Virus record (IMG/VR): IMGVR_UViG_2541047758_000011
Source of the DNA: a virus
Lineage: Duplodnaviria; Heunggongvirae; Uroviricota; Caudoviricetes
Reading direction: 5' to 3' (one strand)
Length of the DNA: 57,499 nt
The position numbers and the translations under genes are program-made. Under the pieces are notes generated by a model that searched no databases, had not been told where the DNA came from, and saw only the letters and a list, made by a program, of their open reading frames with translations. The first letter of the stretch is position 1. Every line of letters begins with the position of its first letter. Of this stretch, positions 16,282 to 47,917 are shown piece by piece.

Positions 16282-16539
16282 ATGATGTACAGCAAATACG
16301 ATGAGGCGCAGTTCCACTTGAGGCTTACACACGAGTTGCACGCTAAGATTAAGCAGCGTGCAAAAATGAATAACAGGTCTATCAATTCCGAAATTGTGGC
16401 TACGATGGAAGAATCACTCTCCAAACCATCACCTGTAAGCGGGTATCGTGATGAAGAAGAGAGGCTGGCCTCATTAATCTCGGAACGAGTAAAAGAAGTT
16501 GTGGCTGATATCCTTAGAAAAGAAAAAACCCGCGATTAA
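16282..16539 (+). CDS. mnt: Mnt-like ribbon-helix-helix repressor
   Basis: ...RSINSEIVATMEESLSKPSPVSGYRDEEERLA resembles P22 Mnt (..SKPSPVTGYR..); start chosen at ATG 16282 inside a longer track ORF. Confidence 0.7.
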   Translation: MMYSKYDEAQFHLRLTHELHAKIKQRAKMNNRSINSEIVATMEESLSKPSPVSGYRDEEERLASLISERVKEVVADILRKEKTRD

Positions 16540-16548
16540 GCGGGTTTA
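16522..16548. terminator. Bidirectional hairpin terminator (aacccgcgattaagcgggtt)
   Basis: Stem-loop flanked by A-run on one side and T-rich on the other, between convergent genes. Confidence 0.55.
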
Positions 16549-16553
16549 GTTGG

Positions 16554-16775
16554 TTAGTTATCAAAAAGTCCGTACGTTTCTTCTTCTTCAGGTGTAAGGG
16601 GAAGAATCTCTACTCTATCTATAGATACCTTTTCAATGTACCCATGAGGTCTACTTAAAATTAAAGCTCTCTCATGCCACAGAACTCCAAGAATGTGATA
16701 CCTTCCAGCATCGCCTTTTACCCTGGCTCTTCCTTTGATTCTTGGCGGCATAATGCCATATTTTTTCTTTGCCAT
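16554..16775 (-). CDS. Hypothetical small basic protein (73 aa)
   Basis: ORF MAKKKYGIMPPRIKGRARVKGDAGRYHILGVLWHER...; no recognised family. Confidence 0.45.
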   Translation of the reverse strand: MAKKKYGIMPPRIKGRARVKGDAGRYHILGVLWHERALILSRPHGYIEKVSIDRVEILPLTPEEEETYGLFDN

Positions 16776-16995
16776 TATGCAACATTACTCCCATGAATCA
16801 GGTGTTGTAGTGCTTTAACACCTTCCGCATTGTAGCGGAATGCTTCCACCTGTTTGCTGGAATGCGCAGATTTATCCAGGAAGAACTTCCCGTACTGCTC
16901 AGTTTTGAGGTTGTTTGCGTTAGCAATGCGACCAATCTTGTTGGCCGTTACTCCAAGCTGCTCTGCAACCTCCCCTGCTGAGTAGTAATGCTCTT
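16775..16995 (-). pseudogene. C-terminal gene fragment truncated by IS911 (possible regulatory/antirepressor remnant)
   Basis: Reading frame runs out of IS911 left end; only ~73 codons are non-IS sequence. Confidence 0.4.
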
Positions 16996-17067
16996 TGAAG
17001 TGGTTTACTGAATTTGGCCACCTGAACAGAGGTGATATGCTCACCTCAGAACAACACAGGTGCCATA

Positions 17068-18215
<1,148 letters not shown>

Positions 18216-18245
18216 CTCGGTGGCCAGTTTTTGTTGACCACTTCA

Positions 18246-18756
18246 ATTCTATTGCCGGAAGAGGTATTGCATTAAAACCAACGAGCGGGTTGATTATACT
18301 TGCTGCCGCTGTCTGCTTTGCCTCAGGCGCAAGATTTGGCATCAGATCGAACAGATTGGTAACAGCTTCAACCGTCATTTTCAATGTTCGCGCTTGACGA
18401 TACTCAACAAGTCCACTCGCTGATTTACCGCTTTTAATGTGCGCTTCTTGCATACTTTCAAGTTGGTCTACCAGTGAGCGGCGAACGGCTTTTGACTCGC
18501 GAGCGGCAACTCGCAATGCTTGCTTGATTGACATCTCAATGATAACCATCGAAGTTTTGTTCGCTTTTTGCACTACACTTTTTGTGTAGTGCTCTCCATC
18601 CAATTCATCTTCAATTTTCTCGATGAATTTGTTATTACGAACCTCCGGCTCACCGCACTGTCTACGAGCCTGATTTACCATCTCAAGCAGGCGCTGGCTG
18701 TCAATGGTTTTATCCGTGACAACGGATCCGATGTTTGCTACATTCTTAAAAGTCAT
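18246..18756 (-). pseudogene. N-terminal fragment of Rha/antirepressor-like regulatory gene interrupted by IS911
   Basis: ORF MTFKNVANIGSVVTDKTIDSQRLLEMVNQARRQCGEPEVRNNKFIEKI... runs into IS911 right end; family call is tentative. Confidence 0.4.
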
Positions 18757-18843: not shown

Positions 18844-19482
18844 TCAATGAATCCATTCCTCGCCGCTAAGTTTTGCCAGCATTGGCTGAGCGTTCTTTAC
18901 GACAAAATTGTTGGTATCAAGATTCTTCATTTCACGAAGAAGTGATTTCTTGGTTTCTTCTGACATATAGCGAGTCTCATATGCAATATCGTATATTCTT
19001 CCTGAAAGCTCAGAACCAATTTGCTTCATTCCTGGGTAGATGTGTTTGCACATTTGTTGACTCTTCTCCATCCACAATTGTAAGTAGCAGAGATTAACCA
19101 GTTCTTCGTCAGTAAACTGTTTTGCAATCGGTGAGCATTCTGCCTGCCGATCCAAAATATCCAGCACCCAGCGGCGGAACTCTTTGGCCTTGGGCGTAGA
19201 AGCAAACATCGCCACCAAGTGAGCGCCTCGGAGCGAGTAAACTCTGACCGATTTGTTACGTAAGCTATTGTTTATTCCGTTGACCTTCATATTGAGGGTC
19301 AATGACATTGAGTCGGAAAATTCGTCAGCATTACGGGCATAAATTTGGCTGATGGCATCAGTTTTTTTATAGCCGAGAGCCTTAGCTAGTTCGGTGGAGG
19401 TGAACCAGATAGACCCGCCCTCTGTTACAGGGTTAAAAGTGAATCCTTGGAAGTTATAATCTGATTTTGCTACAATATTCAT
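18844..19482 (-). CDS. ant: Antirepressor (Bro-N domain) Ant-like
   Basis: MNIVAKSDYNFQGFTFNPVTEGGSIWFTSTELAKALGYKKTDAISQ... Bro-N/antirepressor-like N-domain, downstream of arc. Confidence 0.7.
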   Translation of the reverse strand: MNIVAKSDYNFQGFTFNPVTEGGSIWFTSTELAKALGYKKTDAISQIYARNADEFSDSMSLTLNMKVNGINNSLRNKSVRVYSLRGAHLVAMFASTPKAKEFRRWVLDILDRQAECSPIAKQFTDEELVNLCYLQLWMEKSQQMCKHIYPGMKQIGSELSGRIYDIAYETRYMSEETKKSLLREMKNLDTNNFVVKNAQPMLAKLSGEEWIH

Positions 19483-19555: not shown

Positions 19556-19729
19556 TTATTGGATGACAACATCGCCCTTTGCCTCAAGTTTCATCAATAA
19601 CTCCATTCGATAAGCTATCTCTGCCTGAATTGACCTATGGCATCTTTTTGCTGATTCGCGGATATGTGAATCAACCTTTTCTGTAAAACGAACCTGACGC
19701 GGCTTGATGGAAGATATCTTTTCAGTCAT
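19556..19729 (-). CDS. arc: Arc-like ribbon-helix-helix repressor (57 aa)
   Basis: Manual translation MTEKISSIKPRQVRFTEKVDSHIRESAKRCHRSIQAEIAYRMELLMKLEAKGD resembles P22 Arc; below ORF track threshold. Confidence 0.65.
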   Translation of the reverse strand: MTEKISSIKPRQVRFTEKVDSHIRESAKRCHRSIQAEIAYRMELLMKLEAKGDVVIQ

Positions 19730-19828
19730 TATGCACTCCTGTTTTTGAAAAACTCATAATCTCACTTTTTGCAGTTTGATTATTCACTCACACTCAGTAT
19801 GAGTCAATGAATTTTTTATGGTGAACTA

Positions 19829-20470
19829 ATGAATTTTGACGATCAATTCCCATCAAGAGTATCTCTGGCAAGACAGTCCAGGGGTATGACGCAGGCGCAG
19901 TTGTCAAAATTAGCTGGTGTTGTTCAACGTCAAATAGCTGCATACGAGGGTGGTGAGGCTAAACCACGGCTTCGTGTATTGCAGGCATTAGCCAACGCAT
20001 TAGGTACTACGGCTGAGTGGTTAGCTCTAGGTGAAGGTCAGGGTCCAGGAACAAAAAACGTCATGCCTGACGTTCTGGTAAAGCAAATACCAATTCTCAA
20101 ACTAGATGAAGTTATGCATTACCTAAACACAGGTGAACATTCATCGTCTAGATTTCATCCGGCAATATACAATGTTGGTGACTCTGCATTTGCATTGACT
20201 ATTGAAGGTGAAGCTATGACTACAAGTTCAGGTATTAGCTTTCCCAGAGGATCGGTTGTCACGTTCAGCCCTCTAGTAAAAGCTAAAAGCAAAGATTATG
20301 TAATAGCATCATTGGATAAAGAGCAAATATTGAGCTTCAAACAGGTTTACATTGGTGAAATAGAGACAAACCTAGTATCCCTAAACCCAATGTATCCTAA
20401 TATTCTTGTTAGAAATGAAGATGTTAGTATTTTGGCAACCGCAGTTTACCTTGAAATCCCGTTGCTTTGA
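19829..20470 (+). CDS. XRE-HTH / LexA-cI-like S24 domain protein with nucleophile Ser replaced by Ala (predicted non-cleavable)
   Basis: N-terminal HTH (MTQAQLSKLAGVVQRQIAAYEGGEAKP); C-domain aligns with lambda cI CTD but has EGEAM where cI has EGNSM; Lys of dyad retained (SFKQV); AT-rich. Confidence 0.75.
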   Translation: MNFDDQFPSRVSLARQSRGMTQAQLSKLAGVVQRQIAAYEGGEAKPRLRVLQALANALGTTAEWLALGEGQGPGTKNVMPDVLVKQIPILKLDEVMHYLNTGEHSSSRFHPAIYNVGDSAFALTIEGEAMTTSSGISFPRGSVVTFSPLVKAKSKDYVIASLDKEQILSFKQVYIGEIETNLVSLNPMYPNILVRNEDVSILATAVYLEIPLL

Positions 20471-20530
20471 TATCCTTTAGGAAGCGACACATTATCATCT
20501 GGTATCCTGCTCAAAACTAAGGAGGTTGGT

Positions 20531-20860
20531 GTGCTTGAATGGTTTCTGTTGGCTGCATTGGTCGTTTCTGGTTTGGTGTATGAGTATCGAATGCACTCTC
20601 TAACAAAAAAAATAGGAATTCTAGAAAACGAATATTGTGCTCTCAAATCCTCACTGGAACGTGAGCAAGGGGACTTAAAAATCTCTCTGTCTAGCATTGA
20701 GCGTTCTATAGAGAGCTTAGAGGATAAGGTTGATCGTATAAAGAATGAGGATATTCATGATATTAAGGACGACATATCCTTCTTAAAATCTTGGTTGAAA
20801 AATGTTGGGAAAATTGCCACATCAACACGAGATAAGCTCAATCCATCCATGGATGACTAA
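20531..20860 (+). CDS. Small membrane-anchored coiled-coil protein (109 aa)
   Basis: N-terminal hydrophobic helix MLEWFLLAALVVSGLVY then heptad-like charged repeats; 60 bp downstream of previous gene on same strand. Confidence 0.6.
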   Translation: MLEWFLLAALVVSGLVYEYRMHSLTKKIGILENEYCALKSSLEREQGDLKISLSSIERSIESLEDKVDRIKNEDIHDIKDDISFLKSWLKNVGKIATSTRDKLNPSMDD

Positions 20861-22981
20861 TTACTCCTGTGCCATTCCGCTTAGCGATGCCACAATTCCA
20901 GCTCTTGCTAAACGCTGGAACTCTTCGTTTCCTAGTGCCTCGCGTATTGCTTTTACGGCGGCCTTATTTGCCATAAATCTGCGTTCCGCCGCCGCTAATG
21001 CACCATCACTTGCCCCAACCTTAACTGCCTTTGTTGCCTCTTGAACAGCCTTTTCAATAGCGTAACGACCGCTTCTAGTTGCGGATAATTTCGCTATCGC
21101 TCCTTTTGCCATTGCATCAATTGCCCCACCTGCAGCGCCACCCGCTATTGCTCCAATAACGCCTCCTCCAGAGAACCCTGCGATAGTGCCAGTAGTTCTA
21201 AAAGCGCCAGACAATGCGCTCTCTAAAACTGGATGAAGGCCATTCTCAAGAGTGCTAATGGCTGGCATAGATCGCCCTGTCTGTTCAACATATCGAAGTG
21301 GCTTTGTTGCTGCTCGTGCAAGTTCTCCGTATGAACTTGTAATCCTGCCAAGTTCTGGAGAATATCGACTAATTGCCTTCACGTTTTGTGGGGTAAGAAT
21401 AGTCGCGATATGCTTAATTCCAGCCTCTTCAGACTTACCTCCGCGTACCCCTTGCGACATTGCATCTTGTAATATTGATGCAATTGCTGGCGCGCGTTCC
21501 GACTCAGGTAGGGCGCTTATTATTTTATGGAACTGACCTGTTCCACTTTTTGCTGAACCCTGTAACGCCTTAGATCCATTAGTTACCAACTGATCAGTTG
21601 CAAGGTCTCTACCAAACGCTGCTTCAGCCTGTTCTTGTGCTGTAAATCTTGCCTTTGACAGATCATTAGCTTTTTGCCAGTCATCAAGAAAACCGCCATT
21701 TTGAGCCATTATGCGCATATCTTCCGTTGCTGCATCACGAAGCTCAGCCATGCGCCTTGCCGTATTTGCCTCACCAGACCTTATATACTTCTGCTCTGCG
21801 TCAGCAAGTTTACTTCGCCATGCCTTCATGGCATCAAACGTGATTCCTTTTTTACCAGTTTTAGCATAAGCAGATGCGAATTGTTTCATCTCAGGAGTTA
21901 GCGGCATGCCAGCCAAAATATCACCCTGAATTGTAGCGTTCAGGTTTGACATTCTGGCCTTTGCGTCAGGCATCGTGGAGCGGACGCTATCCCATGCGGC
22001 CTTTTCTGAATTTTTCATTTTATCAATACTTGCCAAAACCCTTTGTTTTATGGCTGCACTTTTTTCTGATGCAGTTCCTGCTTCAGCCCCAAACTCATCC
22101 AATGCTGAGTTAAATTTCGACTCTATTTCACTGAATGCTTTGGTGTGTGCATCCTGTGTAATTCCGGGCTTTGACGCCAGAATCCCCTCCGCCTGAGCAA
22201 GACCACGACTACCTGATCTCATGCCAGGAGTTAATGCGTTGATATCTATTCCAGCAGTATCTGCTGCTTTTGCTATTTCGTCTGACACATTAGCTGACTG
22301 TCTGGCAATAATCTCTCTTCCTGTACCAGACTTTGCCATTTTCGAAACATCAGCAGCGGAATTTATTGCCCCGCCACCAAGAACTTGAGGTGATTTAGAG
22401 GTTAAGATCCTTCCAGCCCCAGAAAGTATCCCCTGAGCACCAATATTGATACCACCGTTAATGGCAGCATTTTGTGCAAAATCACCCTCCTGATTTGCAG
22501 CATCAGCAAGAGAACCTGCAATCATGTTTCCTGCGGAACCGATGTCTCCTGCGAGCTTTGCTGGCGCTCCAGCAACTTTTGCCGCTGTGCCAATTGGCAG
22601 GAGATACCCACCAATTGTTTCACCGGCTTGCGCCCAAGGGTCTGTCGGTCGATCGACAGGGCGATAAACATCATCCAAAACCTTGGGGCCACCAAGCCCC
22701 TGGCTGATTGCATTAATCAGACTTGCGCCACCCTGCAATACGTCAAATGGTATGTTTACCAGACCACGACCAGCCTGTTCTGCAATTTGCCCTGCACTTT
22801 GACCACCAGTGAGCCAGTCAGTGGCTTTTCCTACCAGAGATTGTTCTTCTGGTTGCAATTGGTTTTGAGTGGATTGATCACCAGAAGACAGCATCTGAGC
22901 AATGCGACGTGCTCCCTCAGTATCGCCGGCAGCATCAGCATTCCTTAACGCCATCATCAACTGTTCGCGACTATAGGCCAT
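20861..22981 (-). CDS. DNA ejection/injection protein (P22 gp16-like)
   Basis: 706-aa Ala/Gly-rich protein in gp7-gp20-gp16 order, last of three ejection-protein genes. Confidence 0.75.
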
Positions 22982-42315: not shown

Positions 42316-43409
42316 TTAATACTCCGTCACGTTTTCCTGTCGCCACGCCTCGTCATATTCCGATTTCGGCATATTGGCGATGTAGCTATATGGCGATCCT
42401 GATTCAAGTTGCAGGAACTGGTGCGATTGCTCGTCAAGGAACAACGGGACACCACCTTCCCAACCTTCGCCGTTACGTTGTTTTTCAAGCATCAAAACAG
42501 ATGCCGGAGATGCCAGTAGCTGTTCGTCCTTCTCTGACATCTTTTCACCACTCTGAACTCTCTGTAACGCTCTCTCGCGAGCCTTGTTACGCCAGATGAT
42601 GAAAAGGTTGTCTGTCAGGTCTGTTATCGCTCCAGAGCCTTTTACGTCCATTTTCCCGGTTGGTTTTTCTTCGCTGTCTCCTTTTCGCGAGTGAGTAACG
42701 AGAATGACGTGGGAGTTTGTTTTGTTTTTGAAGTCGCAAATCGAGTCAACAAACGCCTTCTGCCCGTTATAGTCATCGTCGCCTATGCCACATTTCATCA
42801 GGCTGTCGATGATGAATAACTGGATCCCGTATCGGCGGCGAGCGTAGTCGAATATTTCGATCAGCCTGTCGGCTTTCGCCGTTCCGGTCAGGCCAAACAC
42901 CCAAAGTCTTTCGTCATAAAATTTAAATGCAGAGTCAATTTCCAGCACTGGCGGAATCTTGCAGCACGTCGCCTGACGGGTAAGGCGCTTAAGGAGAATA
43001 CCAGGCTTCAGCTCAAGTGACGCGATGCACGTCTTCACACCCTGCCGCATTGCCTCAAGTGCCATATGCCCGACAACCTCCGTTTTTCCGTGACCGTTCA
43101 CACCATTGACCAGCGTCAACTCTGCCTCACGGAACTGGAATTTATCTGCCAGAGATTCCCACGGTGGATTAAACAGATACTGCTGCTTGCCGTAGAAAGC
43201 GTTGATAGTGTCCTGGTAAAACTCTCGCGCGCTGTAGAGTTCTTCAGGATCGAAGTAGGATGCCGTGCCGATGTACTGCCAGATTTCATCCTCGGTAACA
43301 CCGTTCATCAGGCATTCGTTGATGTCTTTGTACGGCAGAGTAACAAGACGGCAACGATGTTCACCGAGTCGGCTTGCGATTTCCCTTGCGGCTTCACGAC
43401 CAACATCAT
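42316..43409 (-). pseudogene. C-terminal (DnaB-like helicase) part of primase-helicase gene, separated from its 5' part by IS911
   Basis: ..LVNGVNGHGKTEVVGHMALEAMRQGVKTCIASLE.. Walker A and ..LFIIDSLMKCG.. RecA-fold motifs; the track ORF start at 43308 lies just outside the IS. Confidence 0.7.
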
Positions 43410-44659
<1,250 letters not shown>

Positions 44660-47266: not shown

Positions 47267-47917
47267 ATGAATACACAACTGATGGGTGAGCGTATTCGCG
47301 CTCGCAGAAAAGAACTCAAGATTAGGCAGGCTTCCCTTGGCAAGATGGTTGGCGTGTCTAATGTTGCTATTTCCCAATGGGAGCGATCTGAAACTGAGCC
47401 CAATGGCGAAAACCTATTGGCCTTAGCCAAGGCTTTGCAGTGCTCCCCTGATTACCTGTTGAAAGGAGAGGATAGTCTTTCAAACATTGCCTATCACAGC
47501 AGGCATGATCCAAGAGGTTCGTATCCTCTAATTAGTTGGGTAAGCGCAGGATGTTGGATGGAAGCTGTAGAGCCATATCATAGGCGTGCAATAGATAACT
47601 GGTACGACACAACGGTAGATTGTTCTGAAGACTCTTTTTGGCTCGACGTTAAAGGCGACTCAATGACTGCCCCGGCAGGACTGAGTATTCCTGAGGGGAT
47701 GATTATTCTCGTCGACCCAGAAGTCGAACCACGTAATGGAAAGCTGGTAGTCGCCAAACTTGAAGGAGAAAACGAGGCGACATTCAAAAAGTTAGTTATT
47801 GATGCCGGTAGAAAATTCCTGAAACCACTCAATCCACAATACCCAATGATTGAAATCAATGGGAACTGTAAAATCATTGGCGTTGTCGTTGATGCCAAGC
47901 TAGCAAACCTTCCTTAA
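47267..47917 (+). CDS. c2: C2 repressor (P22-type, S24 autopeptidase)
   Basis: 216 aa MNTQLMGERIRARRKELKIRQASLGKMVGVSNVAISQWERSETEPNGENLLAL... with GDSM Ser and Lys dyad. Confidence 0.92.
   Translation: MNTQLMGERIRARRKELKIRQASLGKMVGVSNVAISQWERSETEPNGENLLALAKALQCSPDYLLKGEDSLSNIAYHSRHDPRGSYPLISWVSAGCWMEAVEPYHRRAIDNWYDTTVDCSEDSFWLDVKGDSMTAPAGLSIPEGMIILVDPEVEPRNGKLVVAKLEGENEATFKKLVIDAGRKFLKPLNPQYPMIEINGNCKIIGVVVDAKLANLP

Follow-up and report, generated by a model that had tools for sequence, protein, structure and literature searches.

A candidate cI-like regulator in the place of mnt and an hkcB cassette behind a sieA-type leader in a P22-type ant moron

The sieA-equivalent locus and its two genes

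A stretch of viral DNA of 57,499 nt (IMG/VR record IMGVR_UViG_2541047758_000011; this whole stretch is called the window in the following) was analysed with regard to two genes located within positions 19829-20860. Gene 1 encodes a protein that resembles the lambda cI repressor, and gene 2 encodes a short protein with a hydrophobic N-terminal helix followed by a coiled coil. Both open reading frames (ORFs) are present on the + strand, and the neighbours on either side are located on the - strand (Table 1). The slot is the mnt/sieA position of phage P22, with gene 16 on one side and arc/ant on the other, and the GC content amounts to 0.37-0.39 across 20050-20800 compared with 0.42-0.57 in the flanks. 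A first-pass annotation, made from the sequence alone, had described an AT-rich two-gene module at the sieA-equivalent position of a prophage that carries its own c2 repressor elsewhere. These points were confirmed: the base composition differs as described, the c2 repressor is present with cleavage motifs that are all canonical, and for gene 2 the position agrees even at the nucleotide level, the leader and the start codon being common with P22 sieA.

The assignment of both genes to one module did not hold. Of 5,426 complete Escherichia coli genomes, 28 contained gene 1, 82-117 contained gene 2 and only 2 contained both. A homologue of gene 2, which belongs to the HkcB family, lies downstream in only 4 of the 72 viral contigs encoding a relative of gene 1, and, among the matches listed, gene 1 lies upstream of the leader and cassette unit described below in only 12 of 117 contigs. 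DNA searches break the region at about 20500-20533, with gene 1 present without gene 2 in phage JEP4 and gene 2 present without gene 1 as hkcB of phage HK620. Because co-occurrence is so rare, the two genes are not one system, and with high confidence the 1-kb stretch consists of two adjacent, independent pieces of a P22-type 'ant moron'. The conserved partners of gene 1 are found on its other side, namely a divergent Arc-like gene and an antirepressor operon.

The first-pass annotation had read the pair as a dedicated two-gene exclusion, abortive-infection or toxin-like system, in which the dead repressor would control or sense for a membrane effector. The genes lie on the same strand with a gap of 60 bp and no predicted terminator between them, so that co-transcription is possible, and in the E. 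coli clade that carries the identical gene 1, the next gene is almost invariably a slot gene preceded by the constant leader. However, about 10 unrelated alternative genes come after gene 1; upstream of hkcB there are hkcC, mnt-operon genes or others in HK620, CUS-3, epsilon34 and 611R6; distant gene 1 homologues have no same-strand partner downstream; and the slot has a promoter-like site of its own. PADLOC-DB 2.0 gave no system-specific model for either gene, as gene 1 was matched essentially in its helix-turn-helix (HTH) region only (RmrA, CapH; residues 5-71) and gene 2 only weakly by DpdH (E 0.002). The earlier statement that no described defence system matches was thus borne out, the defence scan yielding nothing beyond generic HTH, and across PADLOC, NCBIfam and Pfam no specific family was found for either protein beyond HTH_3 / S24 and phrog_5962. 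The genome counts largely refute the two-gene reading, which is considered very improbable. The locus is not a new defence system, and SieA itself is already known (PMC10883804). On balance, a two-part explanation is favoured, in which gene 1 would be the regulator of the antirepressor operon in the place of mnt and gene 2 a cassette of the sieA slot with a candidate exclusion role.

Table 1. Features of the studied locus and related features of the window
Feature	Position	Strand	Description
Orphan Mnt homologue	16282..16539	+	48% identical to P22 Mnt
Second antirepressor-like gene	16775..18756	-	phrog_1726; KilA in JEP4 annotation; interrupted by IS3-family element
IS3-family element	16996-18254		1259 bp, inside second antirepressor-like gene
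Antirepressor 1	18844..19482	-	Bro-N and P22AR C-terminal domain (P22AR_C)
Arc-like gene	19556..19729	-	57-aa ribbon-helix-helix protein, opens antirepressor operon; signature 'HRSIQAEI'
Divergent control region	19730..19828		99 bp between Arc-like gene and gene 1
Gene 1	19829..20470	+	213-aa lambda-cI-like protein, XRE HTH and S24 fold; proposed Mnt-analogous repressor of divergent antirepressor operon
sieA-slot leader	20467..20530	+	promoter-like site and Shine-Dalgarno, running into GTG start of gene 2
Gene 2 = hkcB	20531..20860	+	109 aa; hydrophobic N-terminal helix, then long coiled-coil helix
Gene 16 homologue	20861..22981	-	ejection / DNA-transfer protein, HK620 type
Canonical c2 repressor of prophage	47267..47917	+	Ala-Gly site (VSAG), Ser nucleophile (GDSM), Lys base (FKK)

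Gene 1 and the divergent antirepressor operon

The gene 1 protein matches HTH_3 (E 9e-13) and Peptidase_S24 (PF00717; E 1.3e-12) of Pfam as well as the phage repressor family phrog_4 (E 7.5e-30). In a phmmer comparison with solved structures, residues 108-206 were aligned with the C-terminal domain of lambda cI in a register that places 'EGEAM' over 'EGNSM' and 'SFKQ' over 'TFKK', and the same register was obtained in an alignment of 26 sequences including lambda cI, LexA and the c2 protein of the window. Ala129 stands at the place of the nucleophile (Ser149 of lambda cI, Ser119 of LexA), so the S24 serine is not present; the general-base lysine is kept as Lys171 (lambda Lys192); and Val95-Met96 is aligned with Ala111-Gly112 of lambda cI, the scissile Ala-Gly bond being gone. 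An AlphaFold model built from 22 homologues (mean predicted local distance difference test score, pLDDT, 84.9) had the full-length lambda repressor (3bdn) as its best Foldseek match, and its C-domain superimposed on the C-terminal domain of lambda cI (1f39) with a TM score of 0.84 and a root-mean-square deviation of 2.1 Å. The exchange of serine for alanine and the retention of the lysine had both been proposed in the first-pass annotation, and the alignment with cI and LexA, which places no serine at the nucleophile position, agrees with it. Because Ala129 replaces the nucleophile and no Ala-Gly bond is available, the protein is predicted to be unable to cleave itself and hence to be insensitive to RecA; the missing Ala-Gly site, which had gone unnoticed earlier, strengthens this prediction. 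With regard to the start of the gene, the N-terminal extensions ('MSQ...') of some database homologues were ruled out as the true start, as ATG-AGT-CAA is followed by a stop codon in the window; these codons are the -35 region read in frame.

Residue states were additionally read across 70 sequences of the gene 1 family, which comprises about 34 clusters at 50% identity (E below 1e-30) within a superfamily of more than 4,000 matches. Ala-Gly is found in only 2 of the 70 sequences. Most sequences have serine at the nucleophile position, Ala or Gly is present there in at least four groups (the window clade with EGEAM/GDAM, L052/L054, L063 and L070-L081), and the lysine is swapped for Arg, Met or Val in many members. 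Close relatives vary as well, a protein with 81% identity (P0003) having Ser and relatives at 76% and 72% having Ala. Another relative with Ser, P0016, possesses Ala-Gly. In view of the family-wide near-absence of Ala-Gly and the repeated losses of the dyad, canonical self-cleavage therefore looks dispensable in these proteins. A regulatory decoy had been among the readings offered in the first-pass annotation; judged from the alignment, the window protein is one of several independent natural 'ind-' dyad losses in the family and does not bear a decoy's signature. Distant relatives (P0012-P0021) carry a C-terminal extension of 50-70 residues that ends in a coiled-coil-like motif, e.g. RLSALENRLDEIMHLIR, and the window protein is without this extension.

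A role as second immunity repressor or decoy was considered, in which the protein would repress heteroimmune early promoters, or would titrate the antirepressor or RecA* as a non-cleavable cI mimic and thereby shield C2. The full cI-like architecture, the predicted non-cleavability and the annotation of the JEP4 protein as 'repressor protein C2' are in line with such a role. Against it, gene 1 is never located at immC and is always next to the antirepressor operon, from which it is separated by a constant distance of about 100 bp, it has neither a cro-like partner nor an OR-type tripartite operator, and a normal c2/cro pair is also present in each prophage examined, which makes this role improbable. 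The prophage of E. coli HS encodes a gene 1 protein identical to that of the window. This prophage is induced by mitomycin C (bioRxiv 10.64898/2026.05.19.726188), which fits SOS control via its cleavable CI-type repressor.

In E. coli prophages, gene 1 is always located opposite the 57-aa gene and the antirepressor operon on the other strand, and homologues with 42-49% identity show the same synteny in a P22-like prophage of Salmonella, a lambdoid element and a prophage with lambda-type (siphovirus) tail genes. An ORF of 50-90 aa on the opposite strand, starting 55-140 bp upstream and mostly at about 100 bp, is present at 75 of 81 gene 1 loci (32-100% identity). The next gene in 41 non-redundant loci encodes Bro-N (26), P22_AR_N (10), KilA-N (2) or Rha (2), which amounts to an antirepressor-type domain at 40 of the 41 loci if no gene matches two domains. 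Since these domains vary, the antirepressor cargo is interchangeable, with gene 1, the spacer and the small gene as the constant parts. A profile of 25 members of the small-gene family was matched to P22 Arc by hhalign with a probability of 74.5% (E 2.7e-5), and to AmrZ (8e-4) and to CopG-family proteins and Arc (0.03) in the PDB. In the epsilon34 genome paper of 2008, HS-1 was described as having antirepressor genes but no arc, and it was concluded that the 'ant morons' of HS-1 and CUS-3 must be controlled differently (PMC2629481). The 57-aa Arc-like gene went unrecognised in that comparison and in older annotations. A literature search (antirepressor, S24, non-cleavable, Mnt, LexA-like) retrieved no description of the gene 1 regulator family or of a cassette composed of a cI-like pseudo-peptidase, an Arc-like protein and an antirepressor.

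The control region contains a leftward sigma-70 promoter matching the consensus at 10/12 positions (-35 TTGACT at 19807-19802, 17-nt spacer, -10 AATAAT at 19784-19779). The position of its -35 (TTGACT/A) and -10 is conserved across the gene 1 family, and the conserved TGAGTCAATG in the spacers largely equals this -35 element. One dyad at 19756-19783 (ATAATCTCACT / AGTTTGATTAT) spans the leftward -10 and the start site, another (ACTCAgtaTGAGT, 19792-19804) covers the -35, and five CTCA/TGAG tetramers are located within 19753-19803. Across 25 non-redundant spacers, perfect inverted repeats with 5-bp arms are enriched at -40 and -8/0 from the -35 anchor (8, 7 and 7 of the 25 spacers compared with about 1.6 expected from shuffles); on the same scale, Omnt and Oarc of P22 centre at about -37 and -10. 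The arc start and the -35 of Pant are 66 nt apart in P22 and about 76 nt apart in the gene 1 family; between the -35 and the start of the repressor gene there are 27 nt and 26 nt, respectively. The order in P22 is ant(-), arc(-), Pant/Pmnt with Omnt and Oarc, mnt(+), orf59a(+), a terminator, PsieA, sieA(+) and 16(-), and the window follows it with gene 1 for mnt and hkcB for sieA. When the start-site dyads were considered as an RNA hairpin in the 5' untranslated region of the operon, RNAalifold returned no consensus structure in 17 sequences, and in an inspection of the control region by eye no LexA box of the type CTGT-N8-ACAG was visible.

As gene 1 occupies the place of mnt within a P22-like geometry, it would most likely be a repressor analogous to Mnt. 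Gene order and promoter layout make it quite probable that gene 1 regulates the divergent operon, and the more specific assignment as an Mnt-like, RecA-insensitive repressor of antirepressor synthesis is put forward with moderate confidence.

Several observations tell against this assignment. An Mnt homologue is encoded in the same moron and is a second candidate for maintaining repression. One antirepressor gene of the window is broken by an insertion sequence (IS) element, so that the ant module may be partly decayed. For gene 1, the consensus scan did not yield a good sigma-70 promoter; the most promising site consists of TTGATT and TATGAG with a 16-nt spacer. Different start-site dyads occur at loci whose Arc-like proteins are almost the same and whose HTH recognition helix does not vary, and because the dyads vary while both proteins stay alike, neither gene 1 nor the Arc-like protein could be matched to operator elements. 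Finally, most members of the gene 1 family retain both Ser and Lys, so the dyad presumably still matters somewhere and the S24 domain may serve for more than dimerisation.

The retention of Ser and Lys in most members, though Ala-Gly is gone, suggests a non-canonical use of the active site and bears on a further alternative. Gene 1 could be a signal-responsive switch: its S24-like domain would respond to a ligand or partner, or would be cleaved in trans, whereupon the antirepressor would be turned on and induction would proceed independently of SOS. Analogues would be the transcription-factor/small-ORF induction modules of linear plasmid-like vibriophages and the ImmR/ImmA and CapH/CapP pairs. 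The architecture is of this kind, in that a transcription factor is encoded divergently next to a small ORF and an antirepressor, and the C-terminal extension found in many homologues is compatible with it. However, the window protein is without nucleophile, so that proteolytic sensing could take place only in trans, no conserved protease gene adjoins gene 1, and the geometry mirrors that of Pant/Pmnt in P22, where the divergent protein is a plain repressor. A switch of this type is thus regarded as rather unlikely, and an Mnt-analogous repressor remains the preferred assignment for gene 1.

Some further features were observed around the operon. The IS3-family element is present in a second, inverted copy with 100% identity at 43401-44659, and the two copies together flank 25 kb including the whole studied region; recombination between them could flip this segment. 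In the E. coli HS prophage, the same second antirepressor-like gene (L087 37869-39810) is broken by a different IS element. Inheritance of the insertion along with the HS prophage was ruled out, as the HS element differs and sits 85 bp away; independent insertions could reflect selection against the gene or a preferred IS target. The orphan Mnt homologue is intact; it runs towards the end of the antirepressor operon and away from the tailspike gene, with a bidirectional terminator-like hairpin near 16530-16550 that is common to the Mnt homologue and the operon, and JEP4 as well as several prophages of E. coli show the same arrangement. At 20055-20076 on the - strand, antisense within gene 1 and on the strand of the late operon, there is a hairpin with a T-run that resembles a terminator and might attenuate late transcription going from gene 16 towards the tailspike gene. 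In a related prophage with the same gene 1 (L003 9351-10256), a gene with a BstA C-terminal domain is located directly 3' of the c2-type repressor, a position that is another moron or defence slot in these phages.

Gene 2 and the cassettes behind the sieA-type leader

Gene 2 matches phrog_5962 (E 1.9e-61), and its product is 98% identical to HkcB of HK620 and 50% identical to gp14 of epsilon34 and HkcB of CUS-3. The GTG start at 20531 lies 5 nt past the Shine-Dalgarno sequence AAGGAGG (20519-20525). The description of gene 2 in the first-pass annotation, a 109-aa protein with one N-terminal transmembrane helix and a coiled coil, was upheld for the coiled coil: in the best heptad register 62% of the a/d positions are hydrophobic compared with 23% elsewhere, and AlphaFold predicts one unbroken helix over residues 2-103 (pLDDT 86). 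Residues 2-16 are hydrophobic (Kyte-Doolittle mean 2.16), and this segment of 15-17 residues is short, so that its transmembrane nature is only likely. In the window, HK620, epsilon34 and CUS-3, the stop codons of hkcB and gene 16 abut irrespective of the upstream genes. The family, which is unannotated, has a narrow range (E. coli, Salmonella, Klebsiella aerogenes). The epsilon34 genome paper counts the hkcB-type gene to the variable 'ant moron' (PMC2629481), and a literature search for 'hkcB' returned only unrelated acronyms.

Upstream of gene 2, a promoter-like site (TTGATA, 20467-20472; 17-nt spacer; CATTAT, 20490-20495) is located at the same relative position as the annotated PsieA of P22. 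Positions 20500-20533 (34 nt) are 97% identical to the P22 sieA start region including the GTG, and the annotated PsieA ends exactly where the sequence common to P22 and the window begins. In other prophages, the 63 nt following the stop of an identical gene 1 are constant, and divergence into unrelated ORFs sets in right after the GTG.

In order to collect such cassettes, viral contigs were scanned with the 29-nt core of the leader, which matched at least 120 contigs (loci L088-L207); at least 117 contigs were assigned to at least 11 unrelated ORF families behind the leader. The HkcB cassette was found in at least 29 contigs, followed by a 129-aa protein with a signal peptide (at least 23), another 109-aa protein with a helix and a coiled coil (at least 14), proteins of 62 aa (at least 12) and 75 aa (at least 9) with two transmembrane segments each, a 164-aa protein with the SieA motif FGRYPGEAKGFNK, i.e. 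a type-A-like SieA (at least 8), and proteins of 140 aa (at least 8), 106 aa (at least 7), 99 aa (at least 3), 149 aa (at least 2) and 68 aa (at least 2). A twelfth cassette with FNRYPGEARKFNK and a slightly different junction corresponds to the HS1-type SieA with a variant of the leader. In 8 of the at least 11 families the N-terminus has a clear hydrophobic segment; that of HkcB is shorter. In JEP4, the 62-aa ORF with two transmembrane segments behind the leader (L001 5771-6040) is missing from the annotation. In E. coli HS, the identical gene 1 is directly followed by a 212-aa gene at the position of type-B sieA, and the type-B sieA of HS1, cloned with 106 bp of upstream DNA, excludes P22-like phages experimentally (PMC10883804). 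Three to four transmembrane helices, together with the motif FxRYPxEAxxFNK on the cytoplasmic side, are the hallmarks of SieA, and ejection proteins of the HK620 type partly escape it (PMC10883804). No description of a constant-leader cassette series at the sieA slot was found in the literature.

HkcB is not SieA, as it has one hydrophobic segment, is without the FxRYPxEAxxFNK motif and shows no sequence similarity. It is nevertheless a candidate exclusion protein because it shares slot, leader and start with sieA, although this function is put forward only tentatively, at somewhat less than even chances. Among the matches listed, the cassette family tracks the type of the gene 16 C-terminus: all 27 HkcB cases have one type, and all 8 cases of the SieA with the motif have another. 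To judge from the compared sequences, what is new for the HkcB family is the sieA-type leader, the series of cassettes and the strict link to a single C-terminal type of gp16.

Two points count against an exclusion role: HkcB has none of the defining features of SieA, and its association with one gp16 type may be mere physical linkage. HkcB could instead be a moron with another envelope or regulatory role (such as lysogenic conversion, or modulation of the phage's own ejection or lysis) that stays beside gene 16 only through linkage, or a gene whose conserved 3' end serves the opposite late transcript. The lack of SieA features, the narrow and unannotated family and the behaviour of the C-terminus would agree with such explanations. 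The C-terminal 45 aa (KVDRIKNEDIHDIKDDISFLKSWLKNVGKIATSTRDKLNPSMDD; residues 65-109, window 20723-20857) hardly vary between alleles whose remaining sequence is about 50% identical, they are also fused to an unrelated N-terminus without hydrophobic helix (P0190, P0191), and in about 35 E. coli genomes the match to hkcB is confined to its 3' third. This pattern suggests either that hkcB contains a second mosaic junction or that the late transcript of the opposite strand constrains its sequence. On the other hand, slot, strand, leader and start codon are the same as for two experimentally validated SieA types, and the predominance of cassette families with a clear N-terminal hydrophobic segment is as expected of a site that collects envelope-acting conversion or exclusion genes. 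A function other than exclusion is accordingly a serious possibility, to which about one chance in three is given.

Proposed mechanism and comparison with known systems

The proposed regulatory cassette would consist of three parts, namely gene 1, the control region of about 100 bp and the divergent operon with the Arc-like gene followed by interchangeable antirepressors. The gene 1 protein would dimerise via its S24-fold C-domain in the manner of lambda cI and bind to the dyad or repeat element overlapping the strong leftward promoter. Antirepressor synthesis would thus be kept off in the lysogen and C2 spared from inactivation, with the 57-aa Arc-like protein autoregulating the operon. RecA* would be unable to trigger cleavage of the gene 1 protein, leaving SOS induction to the canonical c2. 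HkcB would be expressed from the prophage and inserted into the inner membrane, and its coiled coil is expected in the cytoplasm because positive charges come after the hydrophobic helix. Most likely it would block superinfection by P22-like phages, possibly by those whose gp16 is of the HK620 type, at the stage of DNA entry; as ejection proteins of that type partly escape SieA and HkcB travels with HK620-type gene 16, a guess is that HkcB covers this type.

A more far-reaching explanation would regard the leader as a cassette-exchange site, where recombination on the common promoter, Shine-Dalgarno and GTG swaps unrelated envelope proteins. HkcB and about nine other uncharacterised families would then be exclusion proteins tuned to gp16 types (in the case of HkcB the HK620 type, poorly blocked by SieA), and the proteins of the gene 1 family would form a novel class of immI regulators, in which a cI-like pseudo-peptidase replaces Mnt. 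This explanation in its entirety is considered speculative and rather doubtful.

Control of antirepressors outside P22 is poorly understood, and the analysis names a likely regulator pair, the dead cI-like protein and the Arc-like protein, as a candidate answer to the question of how non-P22 ant morons are controlled (raised in PMC2629481). The pair moves as a cassette with interchangeable antirepressors through P22-like, lambda-like and siphovirus-type prophages of Enterobacteriaceae. For the sieA slot, the constant leader of 34-63 nt is a search handle for a dozen mostly envelope-targeted proteins at the spot of SieA, and yields a short list of exclusion candidates directly testable by existing SieA assays.

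Compared with immunity I of P22, the module of the window is located at the same place, between the homologues of gene 16 and of the tailspike gene (gene 9), and both have a repressor gene divergent from an operon in which a small ribbon-helix-helix gene precedes the antirepressor. The geometry of the control regions is alike, with dyads at Omnt-like and Oarc-like positions; in the window a strong leftward promoter is present, and no convincing rightward one was found. The divergent repressor of P22 is the 83-aa ribbon-helix-helix protein Mnt, whereas that of the window is a 213-aa protein with HTH and S24 fold. Unlike P22, the window has a separate Mnt homologue (48% identical) orphaned at the far end of the operon, and modules of the window type carry antirepressors from varied families (Bro-N, P22_AR_N, KilA-N, Rha).

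In relation to SieA of P22 and HS1, gene 2 shares the slot, the strand and the location beside the 3' end of gene 16, together with the P22 leader and GTG, but one short hydrophobic helix stands in HkcB against three to four transmembrane helices in SieA. No difference in substance separates gene 2 from HkcB of HK620, and it is a member of that family.

The gene 1 protein resembles lambda cI, P22 C2 and LexA in domain order, fold, the general-base Lys and the G-x-x-M and F-K motifs, and differs from them by Ala in place of the Ser nucleophile and Val-Met in place of Ala-Gly; unlike lambda cI and P22 C2, it is encoded away from the immC locus and without a cro partner. In effect, it would be the naturally occurring equivalent of the engineered mutants LexA S119A / G85D or cI ind-. 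Antirepressor-based induction circuits are known from the Gifsy prophages, N15 AntC and SPC32H, in which host LexA represses the antirepressor gene and a non-cleavable protein is the main immunity repressor. The module of the window is similar in that a prophage antirepressor would be held in check by a dedicated repressor and that a LexA/cI-like protein without self-cleavage takes part. The difference is that the main repressor c2 of the window looks cleavable, and the non-cleavable protein would be the antirepressor's own regulator.

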